A stretch of 53,807 nucleotides of DNA, taken from the IMG/VR virus record IMGVR_UViG_2718217709_000003. The stretch is one strand, 5' to 3'. Position numbers and translations under genes: made by a program. Shown here piece after piece: positions 1 through 13,288 of the stretch. Source of the stretch: a virus. Taxonomy: Duplodnaviria; Heunggongvirae; Uroviricota; Caudoviricetes. The notes beneath the pieces were generated by a model. It worked only from the letters and a program-made list of their open reading frames with translations. It was not told where the DNA came from and ran no database searches. Position 1 is the first letter of the stretch. Each line of letters opens with the position of its first letter.

Positions 1-725
1 ATGACGGTCGCCCAGTGTCTCGACTACTGGTTCGACAACTACGTCTCTACAACTCTCAGAGAAAAGACCCAGGCACTTTACCGATCAACGGTTATGAAGC
101 GCATGCATGACGCCTTTCCTAATCGTCCGGCATCTTCTATCACGGTTAAGCAATGGGTTGACCTGCTTACCGAAGAAGAAAGAGATAATCCACGCCGAGC
201 AAGGCAGGTGCTAAGTCAACTAAGATCAGCAATAAGTTGGTGCATGCGGCGTCAGTTGATAGATAGTTGCGCAATTATGAGCATCCAACCAAGGGACTTC
301 GGCTCCCGCGCTGAGGTAGGGGATCGGGTACTGTCGTATCACGAACTGGCTAAGATTTGGCTTGCTATTGAAAGAAGCCGTGCGTCTACGTCAAATAAGC
401 TACTTCATCAGATGCTTATGCTGTGGGGGGCGAGGCTCTCAGAGCTTAGGCTGGCAACAAAGACAGAGTTTGACCTGCTGGACAACGTATGGACCGTACC
501 GAAAGAGCATAGCAAGATGGGTAATGTTATCCGCCGTCCAATCTTCGAACAAATTAAGCCTTTCCTCGAAAAGGCCATGACAACGTACAATGATGTTCTT
601 TTCCCTGGAGAAGACATAAACAAACCGATCAGCATCGCTGCAGCCAACCGATTCGTAAATAGAATAAGGGGAGGGATGGATATAGGTTACTGGCGAACAC
701 ATGATTTCAGAAGAACGCTTGTTAC
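1..725 (+). pseudogene. P4-type tyrosine integrase, 5' portion (runs off the window start; interrupted by IS100)
   Basis: Frame-1 translation ends in the integrase box ...WRTHDFRRTLVT before the reading frame enters IS sequence at 726; the 3' portion resumes after the IS. Confidence 0.7.
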
Positions 726-3028
<2,303 letters not shown>

Positions 3029-3227
3029 CTTAATTCTCCAGGCAAAAAGAAACCGCCATATAGCGGCTCTATCAGATATGTACAGGCCTCATCGAGTGTG
3101 AGGCTGTGTGATTTCTTTATTTCCACTCTTAATGTTTGTCAGTGAATGGTTTCTCTATCTCCATTAATGCCTTATTCATCTCATTTCGTAACTCTATAGC
3201 CATCCTGACGGCTTCAACCTGTGCAGG

Positions 3228-4286
3228 ATGTCGGTTATGGGCGATTTAGCCATGAGGGCTAACGTCGCTCTTTCTCAGGGACCGGAAGCCTACAGTAAAT
3301 TCATTACTGACAACAAGGACAGGTTAAATCGCGTTGGTGCTAATGCTGACTGGATGATTCAGACAGGTATCCAGAATCCAGAGCAGCTATCACACATGCT
3401 GACTACTATGTCTCTCGGTGCGCTTGGACCAGAAAAGGCGTTTGCTGTTCAGGATAAGATGGCTGGTCGTGAAATTGACCGAGGCAGGCTGGCAGAGACA
3501 ATCCGCAGCAATCAGGCTGGTGAAGCACTTCAGGCGAGAGGGCAAAACCTTTCCTATCAGTCAGCAATGACTGGGCACAATATCGCAGCACAACGCTTGG
3601 CTCTGGATCAGCAAGAGTTCGGGTTTAAGATGCAGCAAGCGCAGGAAAAGGCTCAGCAGTTGATTAGTGAAGCACCTAAGCTGTCAGTAAACATGGAAAA
3701 AGGCATCGAGACGGCTGTAAACAATGCCACAGCATCATCAAACTCAGCCAATTCTATGAGTGCGCTTGCTCAACAGTTCAGAGCAGAAAAACCAACGACA
3801 GGTTTGTTCGGTAACGCACAGAACATGTTCGCAAAACTTACCGGAAGCGATACGACATTGCGTGATTTGCGCATCCGCCAAAATGCCCTTGTTAACAGTC
3901 AGGTTCTTAAATTCCTACCTCCCGGCCCAGCAACGGATAAAGACGTTGAGATCGTTCGGCAGGGTGCGCCAACTGACATGGATAACCCTGAGACGGTCGC
4001 AAGATGGCTTGATGCAATGGCAAACCTTGAGCGACGAAACGCGCAGTTTAATGAGTTTAAAGCTGAGTGGATGAGCGCGAATGGCAATCCTGGACAATCG
4101 CGTAATGGCGGTCAGATATTGGGGTTGGATGTTAAAAAAGGTGAATCATTGGGGAGTGCCGTTAAGCGGTATATGTCATTGAATACTGACGCAGCGCCAG
4201 CACAAGATTCGACACCTTCAGGAGAACCACGGAATCAGGTTGGATCATATACCTCAAAATCAGGCATTCAATTTACGGTGGAATGA
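3228..4286 (+). CDS. Hypothetical protein (352 aa); possibly a P22 gp20-like ejection protein
   Basis: Long ORF rich in Ala/Gln/Asn, translationally coupled (ATGA overlap) to the next ORF; lies upstream of the immI region and tailspike where P22-like phages encode ejection proteins. Product is inferred from position only. Confidence 0.4.
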
Positions 4287-6124
4287 TGAAAGTAACTGCA
4301 AACGGTAAGACATTTACCTTCCCTGATGGTACGAGCACGGAAGATATTGGAGCCGCCATTGATGATTATTTTGCTGGTCAGGTTGTTCAGCAACAAACAG
4401 TTAATCAGGCCAATAATGCACCAGTACGTGAAGAACCATCATTGATGCAACAAGCTGGCGATTGGCTCACTGGTGGTCAAAGTGCAGGGCAAATTGCAGA
4501 ACAGGCTGGTCGTGGTCTGGTAAACATACCATTTGACGTATTGCAGGGTGGCGCAAGTCTGATTAATGCAATCAGTCAGGGGCTTGGTGGGCCAAAAGTT
4601 TTGGATGATGTTTATCGTCCAGTAGACAAACCGACAGACCCATACGCACAAGCCGGTGAAACAATTGGTGGGTATTTAGTTCCAGGAGTTGGAACGGCAG
4701 GAAGCATGGCTATTGGATCGCTGGCAGAGGCCGCAAATCAGAAAGGCGATTTCGCACAAAATGCAGCTAAAAATGCCGGAGTTAACCTTGCCGCTCAGGG
4801 TGTTCTTTCCGCAGCAGCAAAGGGAATAGGGCGTGGAATAACGGCTATAAAAGGTGATATTGCGCCAGAAGTGGCGAAGAAAATTGCCACATCAGAATCG
4901 ATGGGCGTGACACCAATGACATCTGATGTTATCCCGCCGAAAAATGCTTTCACTCGCGGCCTTACTCAGGATGCCGAGGGGGCTTTGCTCGGGACGGGCT
5001 CAAAGCGAGCAGAGCAATATGCAACGCGGAGTAAGCTGGTAAGCAATTATTTTGACCGTTTTGGTGAGTACAACCCTGATGATGTGGTGAAATCTCTGAC
5101 CACCACGTTAAGGGGGCGGAAGGATGCCGCTGGCGCTGTTATCAATGACGTCACCAATAAAATGGGTAATGCCGCAGTTGATACCACAAATACCATGAAT
5201 GCTCTGAATACAGCGATCGCAAGACAGGAACGGCTTGGGACGTCTGCCAATCAAAGCCTGCTTACATCCTTGCGTAACCTACGTGAAGAATTAGCAAACC
5301 CTGCAACTGATTTGGATGTTACGTTTGATCTCTTGCGTCAGCACAGAACAGCATTTAGATCTAATGTTCAGGGAGATGCTATGGTCTTCCCCAACCAGGC
5401 AAAAGCAGCTACCAATATGGTAGAGAATGCAATGTCAAAAGACCTTCGTAACGCAGTTGCTAAAAACCTCGGTGCATCAGACGCAGCAAAATACCTTAAA
5501 GCAAATTCCGATTATGCAAACGTTTATAATAAGGTGCTTAATAAAAACATTGCCAACAAGCTCAACAAGGCAAGCAGTGAAGCCAGTCCTGAACTTATAA
5601 ATACCGTTGTATTAAGCAGAAAACCATCTGACGTGAAACGAATCTGGAGCGCACTGGATGATAAGGGGAAAGATGCTATGCGTGCAGCTTACGTCAGCAA
5701 AATAGCGGAAAAGACCGGGGACTCTCCAGCCAAGTTCATCACTGAAGTTAATAAGCTGAAATCTCAGTCAGGCGGTGAAATTTACAACACTATTTTTTCT
5801 GGAAAGCACATGAAAGAGCTTGATGCTCTTCATGAAGTTCTACAGCAAACAGCAAGGTCAGACACCGCAAATGTAGTAACTCAGACGGGGCAATCGCAAG
5901 CCAACAGGATAAGGACGATTGGCGCAACTGCGACCCTTGGCGTATCAATGGGGCTTGAGGCTGGTTTTGGTGCAATGATGCGCTTGTATGAGTCCAAAGC
6001 AGCAAGGAATATGCTTCTTCGTTTGGCAAACACCAAAGCAGGAACACCAGCCTATGAAAGAGCGATAAATAACGCTGCGAATGCCATCAGACCGCTGTTT
6101 GCTACTGAGGCAACACAGCAGTAA
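4283..6124 (+). CDS. Hypothetical protein (613 aa); possibly a P22 gp16-like ejection protein
   Basis: Long Ala/Gly-rich ORF, about the size of P22 gp16, in the matching position before the immI region; assignment is positional. Confidence 0.4.
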
Positions 6125-6148
6125 CGTATGGGAAATTGGATTCAATCG

Positions 6149-6538
6149 CTAACATTTTCTTTTTACTTTTCCAACAAAAGCTTTGGTTGAATCCATATTT
6201 CCATAACCGGAAATGGTTTTTGACATTAAAACTGTTCCAGTAGGATGTATTACCCATGAGTCGATAACGCGTTGAGTTTCGCCATTCGCGCCGATTCCTA
6301 TGATGGAGTTTTTAGACAATGCTTTGTAAGCCATGCCGCCCGCATCTGTCCCAGAATATGTGATGCTGGCATCTTCACCGTTTGTCTTAATGATGAATGT
6401 TCCACTAAAACCATCTTCTTCCGGATGGAAATTATTTCGTTCTGAATAGCTTATTCCGCGCATATCTCCAACGACCCAGCACTCTGCTGTAGCCCCAAAA
6501 GATATGAATAAGAACATAGCAGTAAGAAATTGCTTCAC
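6149..6538 (-). CDS. Secreted protein of unknown function (129 aa, N-terminal signal peptide)
   Basis: N-terminus MKQFLTAMFLFISFGATA looks like a Sec signal peptide; sits where P22-like phages carry sieA. Confidence 0.5.
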   Translation of the reverse strand: MKQFLTAMFLFISFGATAECWVVGDMRGISYSERNNFHPEEDGFSGTFIIKTNGEDASITYSGTDAGGMAYKALSKNSIIGIGANGETQRVIDSWVIHPTGTVLMSKTISGYGNMDSTKAFVGKVKRKC

Positions 6539-6655
6539 GCCAACCTCCTTAGTTTTGAGCAGGATACCATGAAAAAAGTAAACATCTTTTGCCTACTTCA
6601 CATTTGAATGGTTTGTCATTAGGATGTTTCCGGTTTTTTAAATATGGAAATTGAT

Positions 6656-7075
6656 ATGAAGAGGATTATTGGCGTCGTTGCTGGCGCTATATTGTTATCT
6701 GGGTGCGCAACTATTGTTGGTGACGAAACGCAGCTTGTGCAAGTGAACAGCAATCCTTCCGGTGCGAGCTTTAAGGTAAAAGACGAATCAGGCGTGATTG
6801 TTGCGCAAGGTAAGACCCCGCAAGGAGTAACTCTTGCCAAGTCAGATGGTAGTTATTTTGGCAAAAAGAGCTACCAGATCACTATGGAAAAGGATGGGTA
6901 CGAACCAGTTACCCTGCCAATCAAAGCCAATGCTAATGGCTGGTATATTGGTGGAAACCTTGTGTTTGGTGGGTTAATTGGTTGGCTTGCTGTAGATCCT
7001 TTTAATGGTGGGATGTATACCTTGAAGCCAAAAGAGGCAAACGCATCTCTTATACCATCAACAAAGCAAGACTAA
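6656..7075 (+). CDS. Lipoprotein of unknown function (about 139 aa)
   Basis: Lipobox LLSGC after a hydrophobic N-terminus (MKRIIGVVAGAILLSGC); followed by a strong intrinsic terminator. Confidence 0.55.
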   Translation: MKRIIGVVAGAILLSGCATIVGDETQLVQVNSNPSGASFKVKDESGVIVAQGKTPQGVTLAKSDGSYFGKKSYQITMEKDGYEPVTLPIKANANGWYIGGNLVFGGLIGWLAVDPFNGGMYTLKPKEANASLIPSTKQD

Positions 7076-7083
7076 TAAATAGG

Positions 7084-7108
7084 ACCCACCTTCAGGTGGG
7101 TTTTTTGT
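7084..7108 (+). terminator. Rho-independent terminator after the lipoprotein gene
   Basis: GC stem cccacc-ttcag-gtgggt followed by a T run (ttttttg). Confidence 0.6.
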
Positions 7109-7343
7109 ACAAATCCTTCAGCGTATCAAATACCATCTTCTTAACAAGCTCTGACTGCTCATCAGCGAGTCGTTCTGCATCGTCGCGATATCCAGTCACA
7201 GGCGATGGTTTTGATAGAGCATCTTGGACGATTTGTAACAACTCGGAGTTCATTGATCTCCCATTCGCCTCCGCCCTGAATTTTAATTTCTCCCTTACTT
7301 CCATAGGCATACGGAAGTTAAAGTGCGGATCATCTCTAGCCAT
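7092..7343 (-). CDS. mnt: Mnt repressor (ribbon-helix-helix), P22 immI region
   Basis: 83-aa protein MARDDPHFNFRMPMEVREKLKFRAEANGRSMNSELLQIVQDAL... matches P22 Mnt as I recall it. Confidence 0.85.
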   Translation of the reverse strand: MARDDPHFNFRMPMEVREKLKFRAEANGRSMNSELLQIVQDALSKPSPVTGYRDDAERLADEQSELVKKMVFDTLKDLYKKPT

Positions 7344-7370
7344 GCCATCACTCCAAGTTAGTGTATTGAC

Positions 7371-7391
7371 ATGATAGAAGCACTCTACTAT
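7371..7391. promoter_or_regulatory. Arc operator overlapping the Pant promoter
   Basis: ATGATAGAAGCACTCTACTAT matches the P22 arc operator; a TTGACA -35 hexamer sits immediately upstream (7366-7371). Confidence 0.7.
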
Positions 7392-7400
7392 ATTCTCAAT

Positions 7401-7417
7401 AGGTCCACGGTGGACCT
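7401..7417. promoter_or_regulatory. Mnt operator (17-bp palindrome)
   Basis: AGGTCCACGGTGGACCT is a perfect palindrome matching the P22 Omnt sequence. Confidence 0.7.
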
Positions 7418-7433
7418 ATATTGTGAGGTGAAT

Positions 7434-7595
7434 ATGAAAGGAATGAGCAAGATGCCGCAGTTCAATTTGCGGTGGCCTAAAGAAGTATTGGATTTGGTCC
7501 GCAAGGTGGCGGAAGAGAATGGTCGGTCTGTTAACTCTGAGATTTATCAGAGAGTAATGGAAAGCTTTAAGAAGGAAGGGCGCATTGGCGCGTAA
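7434..7595 (+). CDS. arc: Arc repressor (53 aa)
   Basis: [53 protein letters not shown]; the ORF track extends it upstream, but the ATG at 7434 gives the canonical 53 aa. Confidence 0.85.
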
Positions 7596-7663
7596 AGTTG
7601 AAGCCCCAACTGCGGGAACAGTCAGGGCTTCGGTTGTCAGTAAATCCGTGGAGAAAAACCAAC

Positions 7664-8566
7664 ATGAATAGTATAGCAATTTTAGAAGCAGTGAACACCT
7701 CTTATGTACCATTCAACGGTCAGCAAATTATCACCGCCATGGCTGCCGGAGTTGCATATGTTGCGATGAAGCCAATCGTTGAAAACCTTGGAATGAGCTG
7801 GTCAACGCAGCAAACAAAACTCATGAAGCAGATTAGCAAATTCAACTGTGTTCATATGAACATGGTTGCCGCTGATGGGAAGCTTCGTAAGCTACTCTGC
7901 CTTCCTTTGAAGAAGTTAAATGGATGGCTGTTCAGCATCAACCCTGAGAAAGTTCGTGCTGACATCCGTGATAAACTGATTCAGTACCAGGAAGAATGCT
8001 TTACTGTACTGCATGACTACTGGACAAAGGGAAAGGCAGAAAATGCACGTAAGAAAACATCTGTTGATGACAGGACTCCGCTTCGTGATGCTGTAAATAT
8101 GCTAGTCAGCAAAAAGCATCTAATGTACCCAGAAGCTTATGCAATGATTCATCAGCGTTTCAATGTGGAAAGTATTGAAGAGCTTGATGCATCTCAGATA
8201 CCGCAAGCCGTAGAGTACATCCACAGGGTAGTGCTTGAAGGTGAATTTATCGGCAAACAAGAGAAGAAAACCAACGAGCTTTCTGCAAAAGAAGCAAACA
8301 GCCTTGTATGGTTATGGGATTATGCCAACCGCTCACAGGCATTATTCCGCGAACTGTATCTGGCGCTAAAACAAATTCAATCGAACTATTCCGGCAGATG
8401 CTACGACTACGGTCATGAATTCTCGTATGTTATCGGAATGGCGAGAGACGTTTTAATAAACCACACACGAGATGTTGATATTAATGAGCCAGACGGACCA
8501 ACGAATCTTTCCGCATGGATGAGACTTAAGAATAAAGAATTGCCTCCTTCAGTACATAACTACTGA
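7664..8566 (+). CDS. ant: Antirepressor Ant (300 aa)
   Basis: Directly downstream of arc as in P22 immI; start taken at MNSIAIL, which gives 300 aa. Confidence 0.7.
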
Positions 8567-8585
8567 CAGATAACCAACGCAACGA

Positions 8586-8609
8586 CCCAGCTTCGGCTGG
8601 GTTTTTTTA
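8586..8609 (+). terminator. Rho-independent terminator after ant
   Basis: Stem acccagc-ttcg-gctgggt followed by tttttttat. Confidence 0.6.
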
Positions 8610-8666
8610 TGCCCAAAATTCACCGTAGCTACGCTGCGGCGATTCCTTGTATCTGGAGCAAATTAA

Positions 8667-11168
8667 ATGACAGACATTACAGCCAATGTTGTAGTAAGCA
8701 TGCCTTCGCAACTCTTCACTATGGCGCGTTCTTTTAAAGCCGTAGCCAATGGCAAAATTTATATCGGTAAAATTGACACTGACCCGGTAAATCCTGAAAA
8801 CCAGATTCAGGTCTATGTGGAGAACGAAGACGGCTCTCACGTTCCTGTTGCACAGCCAATCGTCATCAATGCCGCAGGGTATCCAGTATATAACGGACAG
8901 ATTGCCAAATTCGTTACCGTGCAAGGCCATTCTATGGCTGTTTATGATGCGTATGGTGCTCAGCAGTTCTATTTTCCTAATGTGCTGAAGTATGATCCAG
9001 ATCAACTACGTGCACAACTTTTAAGCCCATTGGATGGACTTGGAGATAACCTTGTTAACGTAAAGCAACCAGGCATGTCGTCAGACAGAAGAACTGTTCA
9101 TGATAAAATGATTGAGTCAATCAGCATAGCTGATTACATTGTAAATGACAGCAGCATAACAAATGCAATTATAAATGCCTTAAGTTCAAACGTAGGAACT
9201 ATAATTATTCCTCCTGGTGAGTTTGTTGCAAACCCGTCAATAAAAGATGTTTCTGGATTATTTAAGTTGTTTTCAAGATGTGAGTTAAGGGGGCGGCTTA
9301 CAGTTAATATTCCTCCTGGCTATTCATATTTTACAGAAAAGACCATTGTTAGTTGTATAGGCGCCCATAATTTGACAATTAAGGGTGTCAAATATGAAAC
9401 ATCAATAACATCACTTGTATCAGTTGCTGGTTCGAAGAAAAATTATTCTGTAACGATATCGCTTTCTGATGCTTCAAATGTTTCTGTTGGTGATTATATC
9501 ATAATTAGACATGACGTTTCAGGAACCGGTGCATATCACATGCACTGTGGAGGATGGAAAGTACTGTCAGTTTCTGGAGCAAATGTTACAGTAAATAATA
9601 CTTGCCATCTTGATAACTTCCCTGAATCGACATTAACTGGAGGATCGGTATCTATAATTAAGTCGGTTCTCAAATATACTGGTTGTGATGGTTTTGCCGT
9701 GTCAGGTGGTGATTGTATTAATACAATTGATGGTGTAGCCATTGTTGGTGATTACTCGGTAGCAGAATCTATAGGCACAATTGGAGCGCATGGGTTCACT
9801 ATTGCCACGCCTGATATAACAATTGATGAACCAGATCCATCAAATAAAGTATTTGACATGTCTGGTAATTTAGCAATTGGTCCTGATATTGTTATATCAG
9901 GGTGGGGGGAGCAGGGATTTGTTGCTTCTGGTCGAGCAGGTGTTGTATGTAATTTTATAGCTTCATCATCTAATAGAAAGCGCGGTATTTACGCGGAAGG
10001 AGCTCATATCAGAGGAAAATTCATGGTTTGCTCTGGTAATGGTGAAGATGGGATTATATCTGATATCGGTGGTGCGATTCAGGCCAACGGATCTGTATGC
10101 TCAGGAAATGGGTTGAATGGGTTCTGGTCATTTAATAACAGTGAGTTAAGCGCGCCAAATGGTGTTGCGTGTGGTAACTCAACAAATGGTATTGAGGCCA
10201 GGGCGTTATCAAAAGTTAATTTCGAAAACGGTAGATCATATCTAAATGCCAGAAATGGAGTATCAGCGTCATATGGTGGAAACATAGCTTTCACTGGTGG
10301 AACATCTAGCGATAATGTAATAGATGGTATCTATTCTGTTTACAACGCAACAGTAGCAGCTAATAATGCAAGTTCGAAAAACAACAGAAGGTATGGTGTT
10401 AACTGCACAGATTCTATGATAGTTATGACTGGTAGCGGAGATGTGTCAGGAAATGTTGCTGCAAACTATATAGATAACGGTGGCGGGGTAATTATAGATA
10501 CGGAAGGAGAGGTGATTCCTGTTAATGCACATCCGCAGAGAAATCTCATGCTGAGGAATGCAACAACTCTTTCTGGTTGTGATATTTCACCTTCATCAAT
10601 TGGTGATATTACCATTTCGTTAAAAAGCTCTCCTTCTGCAGATTTAAGTGATCGTTATGTTTTTAAAGCCGATGGAACTCAGCATCCATCTGGTGATGCA
10701 ACCCAAAATTTGGGGCGCGCGAGCAACAGATATAATGTTGGATATTTTGCCGGAGGTACGCAATCAAGTTCTGATGCAAGACTCAAGACAGCAGTTAGAG
10801 GTATGACCGCTGATGAAATAAATGCCGCAATGAAGATTGCAGAAGTTCTAGGTTTTTGGTCTTGGATTGATGATGAATCTAAAAGACTGCATGCTGGAAC
10901 GACTGTTCAGAAAGTTATTGCAATACTTGAGGAGAATAATCTTGATTGGAAAAAATACGGATTTATTGGTTATGATGCTTGGGATGATGAATTTGAATAT
11001 GTTACTGAAATTGATGAATTTGGAAACTTAGTTAAGAATGGAGAGATGAAGTTGATTAGAGCGGCTGGTGATCTTTGGCAGTTTAGAGATCAGGAGCTTG
11101 ATAGATTTATAATGAGAGGTCTTTTCGAAAGAATTAGAAAGCTTGAAGAATCGTTATACCAAAGATAG
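8667..11168 (+). CDS. Tailspike (833 aa): P22-type head-binding N-terminus, beta-helix receptor domain, C-terminal intramolecular chaperone
   Basis: First ~110 aa ([59 protein letters not shown]...[15 protein letters not shown]) match the P22 gp9 N-terminus; central SGNG/GxNG repeats typical of a parallel beta-helix; C-terminus ...[11 protein letters not shown]...GFWSWIDDE... resembles the peptidase S74 autochaperone. Confidence 0.8.
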
Positions 11169-11282
11169 TAATATCAATGGGTATAATCATTTCTATATAA
11201 AAAACAGATAACCAGCAAATATCACACAAAGCTTTGCACTGGATTGCAAGGCTTTGTGCTCTTCGATAGTGGTTAAGGCGGA

Positions 11283-11351
11283 TCACTCCACCTTTTCATC
11301 AATCCAGTCCGCCCACCATTGCATCATTTCTCTGCGCTTATCGTGGCAGAT
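11283..11351 (-). pseudogene. 3'-terminal fragment of a P4-family integrase gene
   Basis: Last ~22 codons ...SICHDKRREMMQWWADWIDEKVE* resemble the conserved C-terminal tail of P4-type integrases; upstream codons are not integrase-like. Confidence 0.45.
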
Positions 11352-11931
11352 AGATGCCTCACTATCACACGGTGATGGTTCATTACTGGTTTGCATAATG
11401 GATAGAGAACTGCGGATAAAAGATATCCCAAAACCCCAAAATCTCATCTTTAGGGGTTGCAGAAAGGGAGGCGTGAACAAATACCTGCGCATGAAAACGG
11501 AACTAGTCCAGATGTGATGTTTGTGGTGATCACATACATCATTAACGATGCTCGTTATGGTGAGTTTGATGACTACCCGCTGAAGTAAAAATTGTGTTGT
11601 GTACCAAATTGCGTACCAAACTAAAATCACAAATCATGAAGCCCTTGTTCATGGCGGTTCTCAGTGGTGTTGCGCGTAATCGTGAAACAAAAAGGTAGAT
11701 TGTTGCTTACCGTCATTCATCATTAGGTTAAATCCGTTATTTCTGCTGTCTGCCAGAGTATCAAATATCACCGTGCTAATCAGCTTTAGCGCGACAATTT
11801 GGCAGCGAGTGACAACAGATCATGTCAGATAAAAATGAGATAGTAGTCACATTTTCTTGCACTTTATTCCAGCCAGTTCATAAGTATTTCCGTAAAAAGA
11901 ACAGCTATTTGAAACACCTGAGGGTTTGCTG

Positions 11932-11957
11932 TTGAAACGCCGTCTTATTATTGCTGC
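11932..11957 (+). pseudogene. dacD: dacD 5' fragment (first ~9 codons, TTG start), cut by IS2
   Basis: Encodes (M)KRRLIIAA, then IS2 begins; the rest of the signal peptide (SLFVFNLSSGFA) resumes at 13289. Confidence 0.7.
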
Positions 11958-11968
11958 TGGATTTGCCC

Positions 11969-12874
11969 CTATATTTCCAGACATCTGTTATCACTTAACC
12001 CATTACAAGCCCGCTGCCGCAGATATTCCCGTGGCGAGCGATAACCCAGCGCACTATGCGGATGCCATTCGTTATAATGCTCGAACGCCTCTGCAAGGTT
12101 CTTTGCTGCCGTTAACCCGTCTGGTTTGGGCATGATACTGATGTAGTCACGCTTTATCGTTTTCACGAAGCTCTCTGCTATTCCGTTACTCTCCGGACTC
12201 CGCACCGCCGTGTTCTTCGGTTCAAGTCCCAACATCCGGGCGAACTGGCGTGTTTCATTAGCCCGGTAGCATGAACCATTATCCGTCAGCCACTCCACTG
12301 GAGACGACGGAAGATCGTTGCCGAAGCGGCGTTCCACCGCTCCCAGCATGACGTCCTGTACTGTTTCACTGTTGAAGCCGCCGGTAGTGACCGCCCAGTG
12401 CAGTGCCTCACGATCACAGCAGTCCAGCGCGAACGTGACACGCAGTCTCTCTCCGTTATCACAGCAGAACTCGAACCCGTCAGAGCACCATCGCTGATTG
12501 CTTTCTTTCACGGCCACTCTGCCTGTATGTGCCCGTTTCGATGGCGGTACAGCAGGTTTTCGCTCAAGCAACAGCGCATTCTGGCGCATGATCCGGTAAA
12601 CACGTTTGGCATTGATCGCAGGCATACCATCAAGTTCTGCCTGTCTGCGAAGCAGCGCCCATACCCGACGATAACCATACGTGGGCAGCTCTCCGATAAC
12701 ATGGTGTATACGGAGAAGCACATCCGTATCATCAGTGTGACGACTGCGGCGGCCATCCATCCAGTCATCGGTTCGTCTGAGAATGACGTGCAACTGCGCA
12801 CGCGACACCCGGAGACAACGGCTGACTAAGCTTACTCCCCATCCCCGGGCAATAAGGGCGCGTGCGCTATCCAC
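11969..12874 (-). CDS. insD: IS2 transposase InsD (OrfB, 301 aa)
   Basis: IS3-family DDE transposase ORF within the IS2 boundaries. Confidence 0.85.
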
Positions 12875-13197
12875 TTTTTTGCCCGTCCATATTCAACGGC
12901 TTCTTTGAGGAGTTCATTTTCCATCGTTTTCTTGCCGAGCAGGCGCTGGAGTTCTTTAATCTGCTTCATGGCGGCAGCAAGTTCAGAGGCAGGAACAACC
13001 TGTTCTCCGGCGGCGACAGCAGTAAGACTTCCTTCCTGGTATTGCTTACACCAGAGAAATAACTGGCTGGCTGCTACACCATGTTGCCGGGCAACGAGGG
13101 AGACCGTCATCCCCGGTTCAAAGCTCTGCTGAACAATTGCGATCTTTTCCTGTGTGGTACGCCGTCTGCGTTTCTCCGGCCCTAAGACATCAATCAT
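12832..13197 (-). CDS. insC: IS2 InsC (OrfA, 121 aa)
   Basis: [40 protein letters not shown]... HTH protein; overlaps insD in the usual frameshift arrangement. Confidence 0.85.
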
Positions 13198-13288
13198 CTG
13201 TTCTCCAATGACTAGTCTAAAAACTAGTATTAAGACTATCACTTATTTAAGTGATACTGGTTGTCTGGAGATTCAGGGGGCCAGTCTA

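Follow-up and report, generated by a model that had tools for sequence, protein, structure and literature searches.

The tailspike gene in a 53,807-nucleotide stretch of tailed-phage DNA (IMG/VR record IMGVR_UViG_2718217709_000003, here called the window) lies at positions 8667..11168 on the plus strand, and its product appears to combine a P22-type adaptor, a receptor-binding beta-helix, and a self-cleaving C-terminal chaperone. We think it reasonably probable that this is a complete, functional-looking Lederbergvirus spike whose beta-helix recognizes the K15 capsule of Escherichia coli, and that it is now a silent passenger in a prophage remnant. The broader proposal, that the beta-helix represents the first family of phage enzymes directed at the E. 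coli K15 capsule and has been shuffled between P22-like prophages and lytic phages of the myo-, sipho-, and podovirus types, stands in our judgment at about even chances. The three-module architecture is not new, as the P22-like prophage CUS-3 has the same plan and the protein is already annotated as a tailspike. The body belongs to an uncharacterized beta-helix family, and its predicted K15 specificity is the sole part that would be new.

The spike open reading frame (ORF) runs uninterrupted from ATG to TAG and encodes 833 amino acids (aa), a precursor of 89.0 kDa that is 100% identical to the RefSeq "phage tailspike protein" WP_001751387.1 of the enterotoxigenic E. coli (ETEC) strain E925. 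A three-part mosaic had been proposed in the original prediction, which was made from the DNA letters and their ORFs, and each part was recovered with matches far beyond chance. Module 1 (8667..9005; aa 1-113) is a P22-type head-binding domain, or tail-hub adaptor; module 2 (9012..10625; aa 116-653) is the receptor-binding body, predicted to be a right-handed parallel beta-helix of the CASH/PbH1 type; and module 3 (10770..11165; aa 702-833, 15.5 kDa) is an intramolecular chaperone of the Peptidase S74 family. The adaptor is followed by a linker and an N-terminal beta-helix cap (9006..9236; aa 114-190) that retain weak residual similarity to other spikes in the Sf6 gp14 and PHROG alignments, and the chaperone is preceded by a stalk (10626..10769; aa 654-701) resembling the pre-cleavage region of phage T5 pb1. 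All of these features lie on the plus strand.

The adaptor matches the Pfam model Head_binding over its entire length (PF09008; aa 1-113 against model positions 1-113 of 113, E value 1.4e-66, 222.3 bits against a cut-off of 24). Matches to the PDB sequences of P22 gp9 are confined to aa 2-115 (E about 1e-50), with approximately 75% identity as counted from the alignment. The Sf6 gp14 match covers aa 1-174 and is near-identical (about 93%) to approximately aa 112 and weak from there on, the CUS-3 spike shares 113 of its 118 N-terminal residues (96%), and the HK620 gp9 adaptor is more than 90% identical to that of the window spike. A P22-type head-binding N terminus is thus borne out by the full-length PF09008 match, with the correction that its closest relatives are found in the E. 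coli/Shigella branch (CUS-3 and Sf6) and not in P22 itself. That the remainder is unrelated to P22 also held: no homology to a P22 gp9-type endorhamnosidase body was found beyond aa ~115 in the PDB gp9 chains, so that there is no full-length identity to gp9, and the phage DNA match stops at about nucleotide (nt) 350. In a DNA search, the matches in more than 1,100 E. coli genomes and in 29 phages ended with the first ~338-351 nt of the gene. The PHROG spike families align as far as aa ~192, and we rejected the colanic-acid degradation suggested by the name of the top PHROG, which covers only the adaptor and cap (aa 1-192). Because the adaptor is about 93% identical to that of Sf6 gp14, which has been solved in situ (7sg7/7ukj), and is present in prophages that encode gp4 and gp10, there is a strong case that it docks onto the tail hub formed by gp4 and gp10 in P22-like virions; aa 1-113 would thereby anchor the spike trimer on the hub.

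The body carries the SGNG-type beta-helix repeats that had been noticed earlier. Two SGNG copies, at aa 456 and 479, fall within a strict 23-residue register, and the invariant alignment columns and the register printout place eight 23-residue coils at 9972..10523 (+). An asparagine ladder at residues 458, 481, 504, 527, 550, 573, and 596 is invariant throughout the body family, and a glycine occupies position +4 from the ladder asparagine in the six coils from N458 to N573. We modeled aa 116-701 as a monomer with AlphaFold2, using an input alignment of 38 homologues, and obtained a mean predicted local distance difference test (pLDDT) score of 87.5. The score is low at the start of the model, and the C-terminal ~90 residues are poorly predicted because the protein, a trimer, was modeled as a single chain. 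Three-stranded coils, the asparagine ladder, and fold matches to solved members together place the body among the right-handed beta-helices, as judged by fold prediction and fold search. A profile search with the core detected homology to Andhra gp15 (E value 3.8e-21) and to AlgE4 and AlgE6 (5.7e-8 and 1.4e-4, respectively); among solved structures, these have the nearest folds, and no others could be reached with a sequence profile. The tail fiber of the T7-like phage IMM-002 (31% identity, template-modeling score 0.85) was the only close viral structural relative in the fold search. One result speaks against the fold assignment: the Pfam Beta_helix model (PF13229) stays under its cut-off for the window spike (15.7 versus 25.9 bits). 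Two distant members of the body family, P0052 and P0055, pass that cut-off.

A charged patch at 9906..10202 (+), comprising E415, R437-K438-R439, Y442, E444, R449, K451, E460, D461, D466, E510, and R512, is invariant or at least 90% conserved across 38 family members and likewise in a trimmed set. With its residues on consecutive coils (aa 414-512), the patch has the appearance of a groove that binds or acts on an acidic glycan. The body probably cleaves the surface polysaccharide that it recognizes, and a glycoside hydrolase mechanism would be our guess. The segment GNGEDGxxSD of the spike aligns with HNGLDGFVAD of AlgE6. We considered and dropped an AlgE-type catalytic motif: only the D466 coil aligns, and H447 falls in none of the columns that are invariant or conserved to at least 90%. 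The spike's Y442-x-E444-x-x-H447 resembles, out of register, the Tyr/Asp/His motif of AlgE4.

The principal evidence for what the spike recognizes is the distribution of its hosts. As a marker for K15 we used the region-2 ORF1-5 block, which is K15 specific according to Azurmendi et al. (PMC7387560), and looked for it in the full set of 5,426 complete E. coli genomes, 62 of which carry it. Among the 15 genomes that carry the spike or its variant, 14 are positive (93%, against a background of 1.1%; Fisher P = 2e-27, or 8e-8 with all ETEC counted as a single event). The positive carriers are ETEC lineages 1 and 2 and strains M172-1, GPEC859, and PK12, so that pangolin, chicken, and pig isolates are included, and the prophages of these three occupy three different integration sites. 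The O-antigen loci differ among carriers: O6 in both ETEC lineages, O15 in GPEC859, O25 with a frameshifted wzy in LR-27, and an unnamed, IS1-disrupted type in M172-1. Because K15 is what carriers with different O loci and integration sites share, we infer that the body targets the K15 capsule and not the O antigen, either as a binding domain or as a depolymerase. In this model, the beta-helix (aa ~116-653) would recognize and probably cleave the K15 polysaccharide of the host. The idea that the spike has a surface polysaccharide specificity different from that of P22 thereby gains support, and host distribution gives it a direction. The K15 polymer, 4)-alpha-GlcNAc-(1->5)-alpha-Kdo-(2->, is acidic and in part O-acetylated, which is compatible with the charged patch of the body, and the carrier ETEC have historically been typed as O6:K15. 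No published phage K15 depolymerase was found in the open-access library that was searched.

Lytic phages of unrelated types provide further indications. Sashavirus 536P12, Phapecoctavirus 536P1, Justusliebigvirus VEcB and alia, and phage ETEC-TG, for which an ETEC is recorded as host, encode relatives of the body with 58-64% identity. By name, 536P1 and 536P12 correspond to phages isolated on strain 536, which makes the K15 capsule, and adsorption of 536_P1 is abolished by mutations in the K15 locus (PMC11495123). IMM-002 lyses O6 ETEC of the CS1+CS3 and CS2+CS3 types and does not lyse O6 CS17 ETEC (PMC6301781); CS1+CS3 and CS2+CS3 are the profiles of ETEC lineages 1 and 2, in which all sequenced genomes examined are K15 positive. 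The BASEL, VEcB, and Justusliebigvirus papers name no receptor for the body family.

Several observations count against K15 as the target. LR-27, the sole K15-negative carrier, has another capsule locus; its spike is 5'-truncated in a heavily deleted remnant, so that the capsule may plausibly have been switched later. The authors of the 536_P1 study were unable to show that K15 is a receptor and interpreted their K15 mutants as capsule overproducers in which lipopolysaccharide (LPS) is masked, and 536_P1 has several receptor-binding proteins (PMC11495123). For IMM-002, antibody blocking and CS3 neutralization led the authors to name CS3 fimbriae as the receptor (PMC6301781). Body relatives at 31-64% identity need not share a specificity. 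Since the link is a genomic association, K15 could merely mark something that co-occurs with it.

This last point leads to the strongest alternative, which we regard as possible though clearly the less likely account: the spike might bind another structure that co-occurs with K15, such as CS3 fimbriae or a factor linked to the K15 island, or an acidic glycan cleaved by an AlgE-like lyase mechanism, for example colanic acid or enterobacterial common antigen, or it might be a noncatalytic adhesin. K15 is common to the pangolin, chicken, and pig carriers, in which we presume that CS3 is not to be expected. CS3 is placed on ETEC virulence plasmids in the ETEC papers. The loci for colanic acid and enterobacterial common antigen are near-universal in E. 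coli and cannot explain an enrichment from 1.1% to 93%. A further point against this alternative is that E444, E460, D461, D466, and E510 form a conserved acidic cluster on successive coils, as is typical of depolymerase grooves.

An endoglycosidase specific for the O6 O antigen, as would be expected of most P22-like prophage spikes, which usually match the O antigen of the lysogen, was our initial hypothesis, prompted by the O6 host and the "536P" names; we now hold it to be unlikely. E925 and all of the ETEC lineage 2 carriers are O6, as we assume strain 536 to be. A general rule ties prophage spikes to the O type of their host (PMC10408124), and 77% of the 536_P1 resistance mutations fall in LPS genes (PMC11495123). 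These mutations, however, hit core genes (waa, galU, rfaE, and lpcA), which are not O6 specific, and IMM-002 fails to lyse the O6 CS17 ETEC. The prophage relatives of the VEcB receptor-binding protein occur in O6, O11, and O153 hosts, and a 2023 study considered the O antigen "most likely" not to be its target (PMC10408124); the prophage-like receptor-binding protein described in that study presumably belongs to the spike body family. What decided against O6 was the presence of spikes at least 98.6% identical in the non-ETEC carriers with O15 (GPEC859), O25 (LR-27), and unnamed non-O6 (M172-1) loci.

With recognition of the K15 capsule as the preferred reading, the copies and relatives of the spike indicate how the gene moves and decays. 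M172-1 has, at the site that the remnant occupies in the window, a P22-like prophage that appears intact from int to spike and encodes a 99.4% identical spike, and GPEC859 carries a 98.6% identical spike in an apparently intact prophage at argW. These prophages indicate that the spike works in live phages; a reservation is that their intactness was judged by annotation only. The spike copy of the pig strain PK12 is 3'-truncated. In LR-27 (L003:11981-14122), a gutted argW prophage, a deletion has brought the spike sequence, beginning at nt 381, to a position right after the phage lysozyme gene. We discarded the view of LR-27 as an adaptor swap that places another N terminus on the same body, since it is a 5' deletion fused to the lysozyme gene; the fusion, which RefSeq calls a "tail fiber domain-containing protein," is easily mistaken for such a swap.

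A variant of the spike in ETEC lineage 2 and PK12 diverges within a sub-domain of the body (9117..10016, +). In the profile of identity per 50 aa against the E66 spike (L008:12001-14499), aa 1-100 are 100% identical and aa 451 onward 96-100% identical, and aa 151-450 are only 44-76% identical, which marks the variant, by sequence comparison, as a mosaic within the receptor-binding body. The two body variants, both found in K15-positive hosts, could mirror O-acetylation variants of K15. Within the clonal ETEC lineage 2, E272 carries the lineage 1 type and E66, E54, and E143 carry the variant, a mixture that would imply recombination or re-lysogenization at the same site. An IS2 element stands between the spike and dacD in lineage 2 as well as in the window (L008:15296-16524), before the same dacD allele, and the IS2-bearing remnants of lineages 1 and 2 differ in their deletions and spike variants; the annotation of both lineages suggests a shared ancestral IS2 insertion with later recombination upstream. 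In M172-1, IS1 has entered both the O-antigen cluster, truncating wzx, and the K15 region-2 block (L005:40515-42904; NZ_CP058714.1 2852272-2857751), a double pattern that fits selection for loss of surface glycans, possibly under phage pressure.

Beyond these prophages, only 56 clusters in a collection of 5.8 billion proteins match the body. The N-terminal adaptors of the body family vary (PF09008, PF18668, PF27114, or none), and the chaperone is kept in most members.

The C-terminal module had been described as a self-cleaving chaperone of the type seen in endosialidase-like spikes. The self-cleaving type was corroborated, whereas the endosialidase likeness was not: the closest relative is the T5 pb1 type, and the CUS-3 chaperone is only about 24% identical. 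Pfam Peptidase_S74 (PF13884) matches aa 702-757 (E value 1.7e-7, 31.8 bits against a cut-off of 22), and the C terminus of T5 pb1 (4uw8) aligns to aa 654-830 (E value 1.6e-27); other matches to chaperone structures are 7y5s, 6eu4, and 3gud of phage GA-1. With the pb1 catalytic-site residues taken from the structure paper (PMC4690869), Asp1239, Arg1250, Thr1263, Ser1264, and Lys1269 correspond to D677, R688, S701, S702, and K707 of the spike, D677 and R688 being located in the stalk. The Ser/Lys dyad S702/K707 is therefore intact, within an 11-residue chaperone motif at aa 700-710; the codon of the nucleophile S702 occupies nt 10770-10772 and that of K707 nt 10785-10787. As a regular expression, D-x10-R-x12-[S/T]-S-D-x3-K is found in the window spike and in 28 of 37 relatives, and the nine relatives without it also lack a precomputed PF13884 match. 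The cassette is common, with relatives in 409 phage records. Cleavage between S701 and S702 is predicted to yield a mature spike of 73.5 kDa (aa 1-701) and a 15.5-kDa fragment. Residues 654-833 would template the folding of the trimer and then remove themselves, with Ser702 activated by Lys707. D677 and S701 would position R688 from the neighboring chain, so that only a correctly folded trimer would cleave.

The remnant that harbors the spike sits between sbcB and dacD, and positions 1-17536 of the window are 99.994% identical to the ETEC reference E925 (lineage 1, O6). Comparison with the M172-1 prophage confirmed the earlier view that the spike is retained in a remnant without head genes. 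What is kept is int, split by IS100; a small piece from the xis side; two small ORFs; mnt, arc, and ant; the 3' half of one ejection-protein gene and the complete next one; the spike; and IS2 after the spike. Everything from the xis side to the middle of the ejection-protein gene is gone, including the early, lysis, packaging, and head genes, and a complete Lederbergvirus set of these genes is not present in the window. The order that survives is nevertheless that of a Lederbergvirus, with ejection proteins, the immI region (mnt/arc/ant), and the spike at the right end by attR, the same ejection-immI-spike order as in M172-1, PK12, and CUS-3.

In P22-like phages, the spike gene relies on late antitermination. 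The immI region (7092..8566, both strands; identified from ORFs, PHROGs, a promoter scan, and RefSeq) comprises mnt (7092-7343, -), a P_ant-like promoter with 11 of 12 matches (7366-7394, +) that drives arc and ant, arc (7434-7595, +), and ant (7598-8566, +). The scan located a strong intrinsic terminator downstream of ant and ahead of the spike (8584..8603, +), with an 8-bp stem containing five GC pairs and a T-run, and found no promoter-like site between this terminator and the spike ATG. The late promoter has been lost, no gene for a Q or gp23 late antiterminator is left in the window remnant, and the relatives compared carry an antiterminator gene. Because of the preceding terminator, the lack of a promoter after it, and the deleted antiterminator, the spike gene is probably silent in the remnant. 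The window spike differs from that of M172-1 by 10 synonymous and 4 conservative nonsynonymous codon changes; with so small and mostly synonymous a divergence, host selection is not needed to account for the intact gene, which instead appears to be intact as the remnant is young. Domestication, in which the host would use free spike (expressed, e.g., from P_ant) for trimming its capsule or for excluding superinfecting phages, would fit an ORF that is intact in every sequenced ETEC lineage 1 genome and in four lineage 2 genomes and an upstream mnt/arc/ant switch with a good promoter, but it is the least credible alternative and highly improbable given the transcriptional block just described, the 10:4 ratio of changes relative to the live-phage copy, and the decay of copies elsewhere (5' truncation in LR-27 and 3' truncation in PK12).

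The other features of the window are as follows. The integrase fragment (1-798, +) is cut by the window edge and was identified by PHROG, RefSeq, and a 99.4% match to M172-1 int; the IS100 that interrupts it lies at 812-2613 (+; RefSeq annotation). The two ejection (DNA-transfer) protein genes together occupy 3228..6124 (+). The first (3228-4286, +) is 5'-truncated, matching PHROG 917 at profile positions 123-509 only and labeled by RefSeq as "phage DNA ejection protein, missing N-terminus," and the second matches PHROG 770 in full. Between them and immI lie two small conserved phage ORFs, 6149-6538 (-) and 6644-7075 (+), matching PHROG 2651 and 6823; the latter begins with a lipoprotein-like signal (…LLSGCAT…). 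Both are still intact and are possible lysogenic-conversion or exclusion genes. IS2 (11959..13288, -; from ORFs, RefSeq, and the alignment gap against M172-1) forms the right edge of the remnant. Positions 17537-50403 (~32.9 kb, GC content 0.52-0.62) are absent from E925 at the matching position and encode a Mu-type portal, a tail sheath, baseplate J, a tape-measure-like protein, and a tail fiber with Phage_fiber_2 repeats. They represent a Mu-like contractile-tailed prophage inserted at the edge of a CP4-44-like island, unrelated to the P22-type spike, and their presence points to a sister strain of E925 as the source of the window.

As an architecture, the spike is textbook modular evolution that has already been annotated; its specificity is what would matter. 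Seven major ETEC lineages circulate worldwide, lineages 1 and 2 among them; K15 also occurs in the uropathogenic E. coli (UPEC) strain 536, and a recent paper on in silico capsule typing lists K15 as an exceptional locus. If K15 specific, the spike could serve as a typing reagent and capsule-stripping enzyme or as a host-range module for phage or tailocin scaffolds; the O104 prophage spike is a precedent for such grafting of host range (PMC3303846). K15, and not O6 or CS3, would then be the primary determinant of the phages that attack the globally dominant CS1/CS2+CS3 ETEC and UPEC 536, and both the CS3 receptor of IMM-002 (PMC6301781) and the capsule masking proposed for 536_P1 (PMC11495123) would need re-examination. 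Both published readings may be confounded by K15, because both phages carry relatives of the beta-helix and strain 536 and the ETEC lineages with the sensitive profiles are K15 positive. Reading the capsule type instead of the O type against prophage spikes is an approach that can be generalized.

Known systems resemble the window spike module by module. Andhra gp15, from a Staphylococcus phage, and the A-modules of the mannuronan C5-epimerases AlgE4 and AlgE6 share with its body the 23-residue CASH/PbH1 coils and an NG-DG---D motif, but identity is only 14-18%, the substrates are not the same (alginate in the case of AlgE4 and AlgE6), and the alignment, driven by the repeats, does not establish a common catalytic mechanism. 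P22 gp9, Sf6 gp14, and HK620 gp9 have the N-terminal adaptor and, in general terms, a right-handed beta-helix body; unlike the window spike, their bodies are O-antigen endoglycosidases, without detectable sequence similarity to it, and the PDB matches never reach the chaperone. The lytic-coliphage proteins of VEcB (vecB_140), alia, 536P1, 536P12, ETEC-TG, and IMM-002 belong to the same beta-helix family, and that of VEcB, the one checked for it, has the chaperone; they differ in carrying N-terminal adaptors for myovirus, siphovirus, or T7-like tails, and none has a biochemically defined glycan target. Among solved structures, T5 pb1 comes nearest to aa 654-833, with all catalytic-site residues matched, Thr1263 being replaced by S701; it is otherwise a long siphovirus fiber with a bullet-shaped oligomannose-binding tip and without a beta-helix depolymerase body.

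The nearest overall counterpart is CUS-3, a P22-like prophage of the E. coli K1 strain RS218. Its spike likewise consists of Head_binding (1-113), a catalytic body, and Peptidase_S74, and it is encoded after mnt and ant. The CUS-3 body is a beta-propeller endosialidase of glycoside hydrolase family 58 (GH58) that acts on K1 polysialic acid, in contrast to the unrelated beta-helix of the window spike; a Pfam search detected none of the endosialidase beta-propeller, beta-barrel, and End_tail_spike domains (PF12217, PF12195, and PF12219) in the latter, and all three are present in CUS-3. The activity of CUS-3 has been shown experimentally, whereas that of the window spike is predicted. CUS-3 is nonetheless a P22-like phage that is specific for a capsule and not for an O antigen, which is the biology that we propose for the window spike as well.

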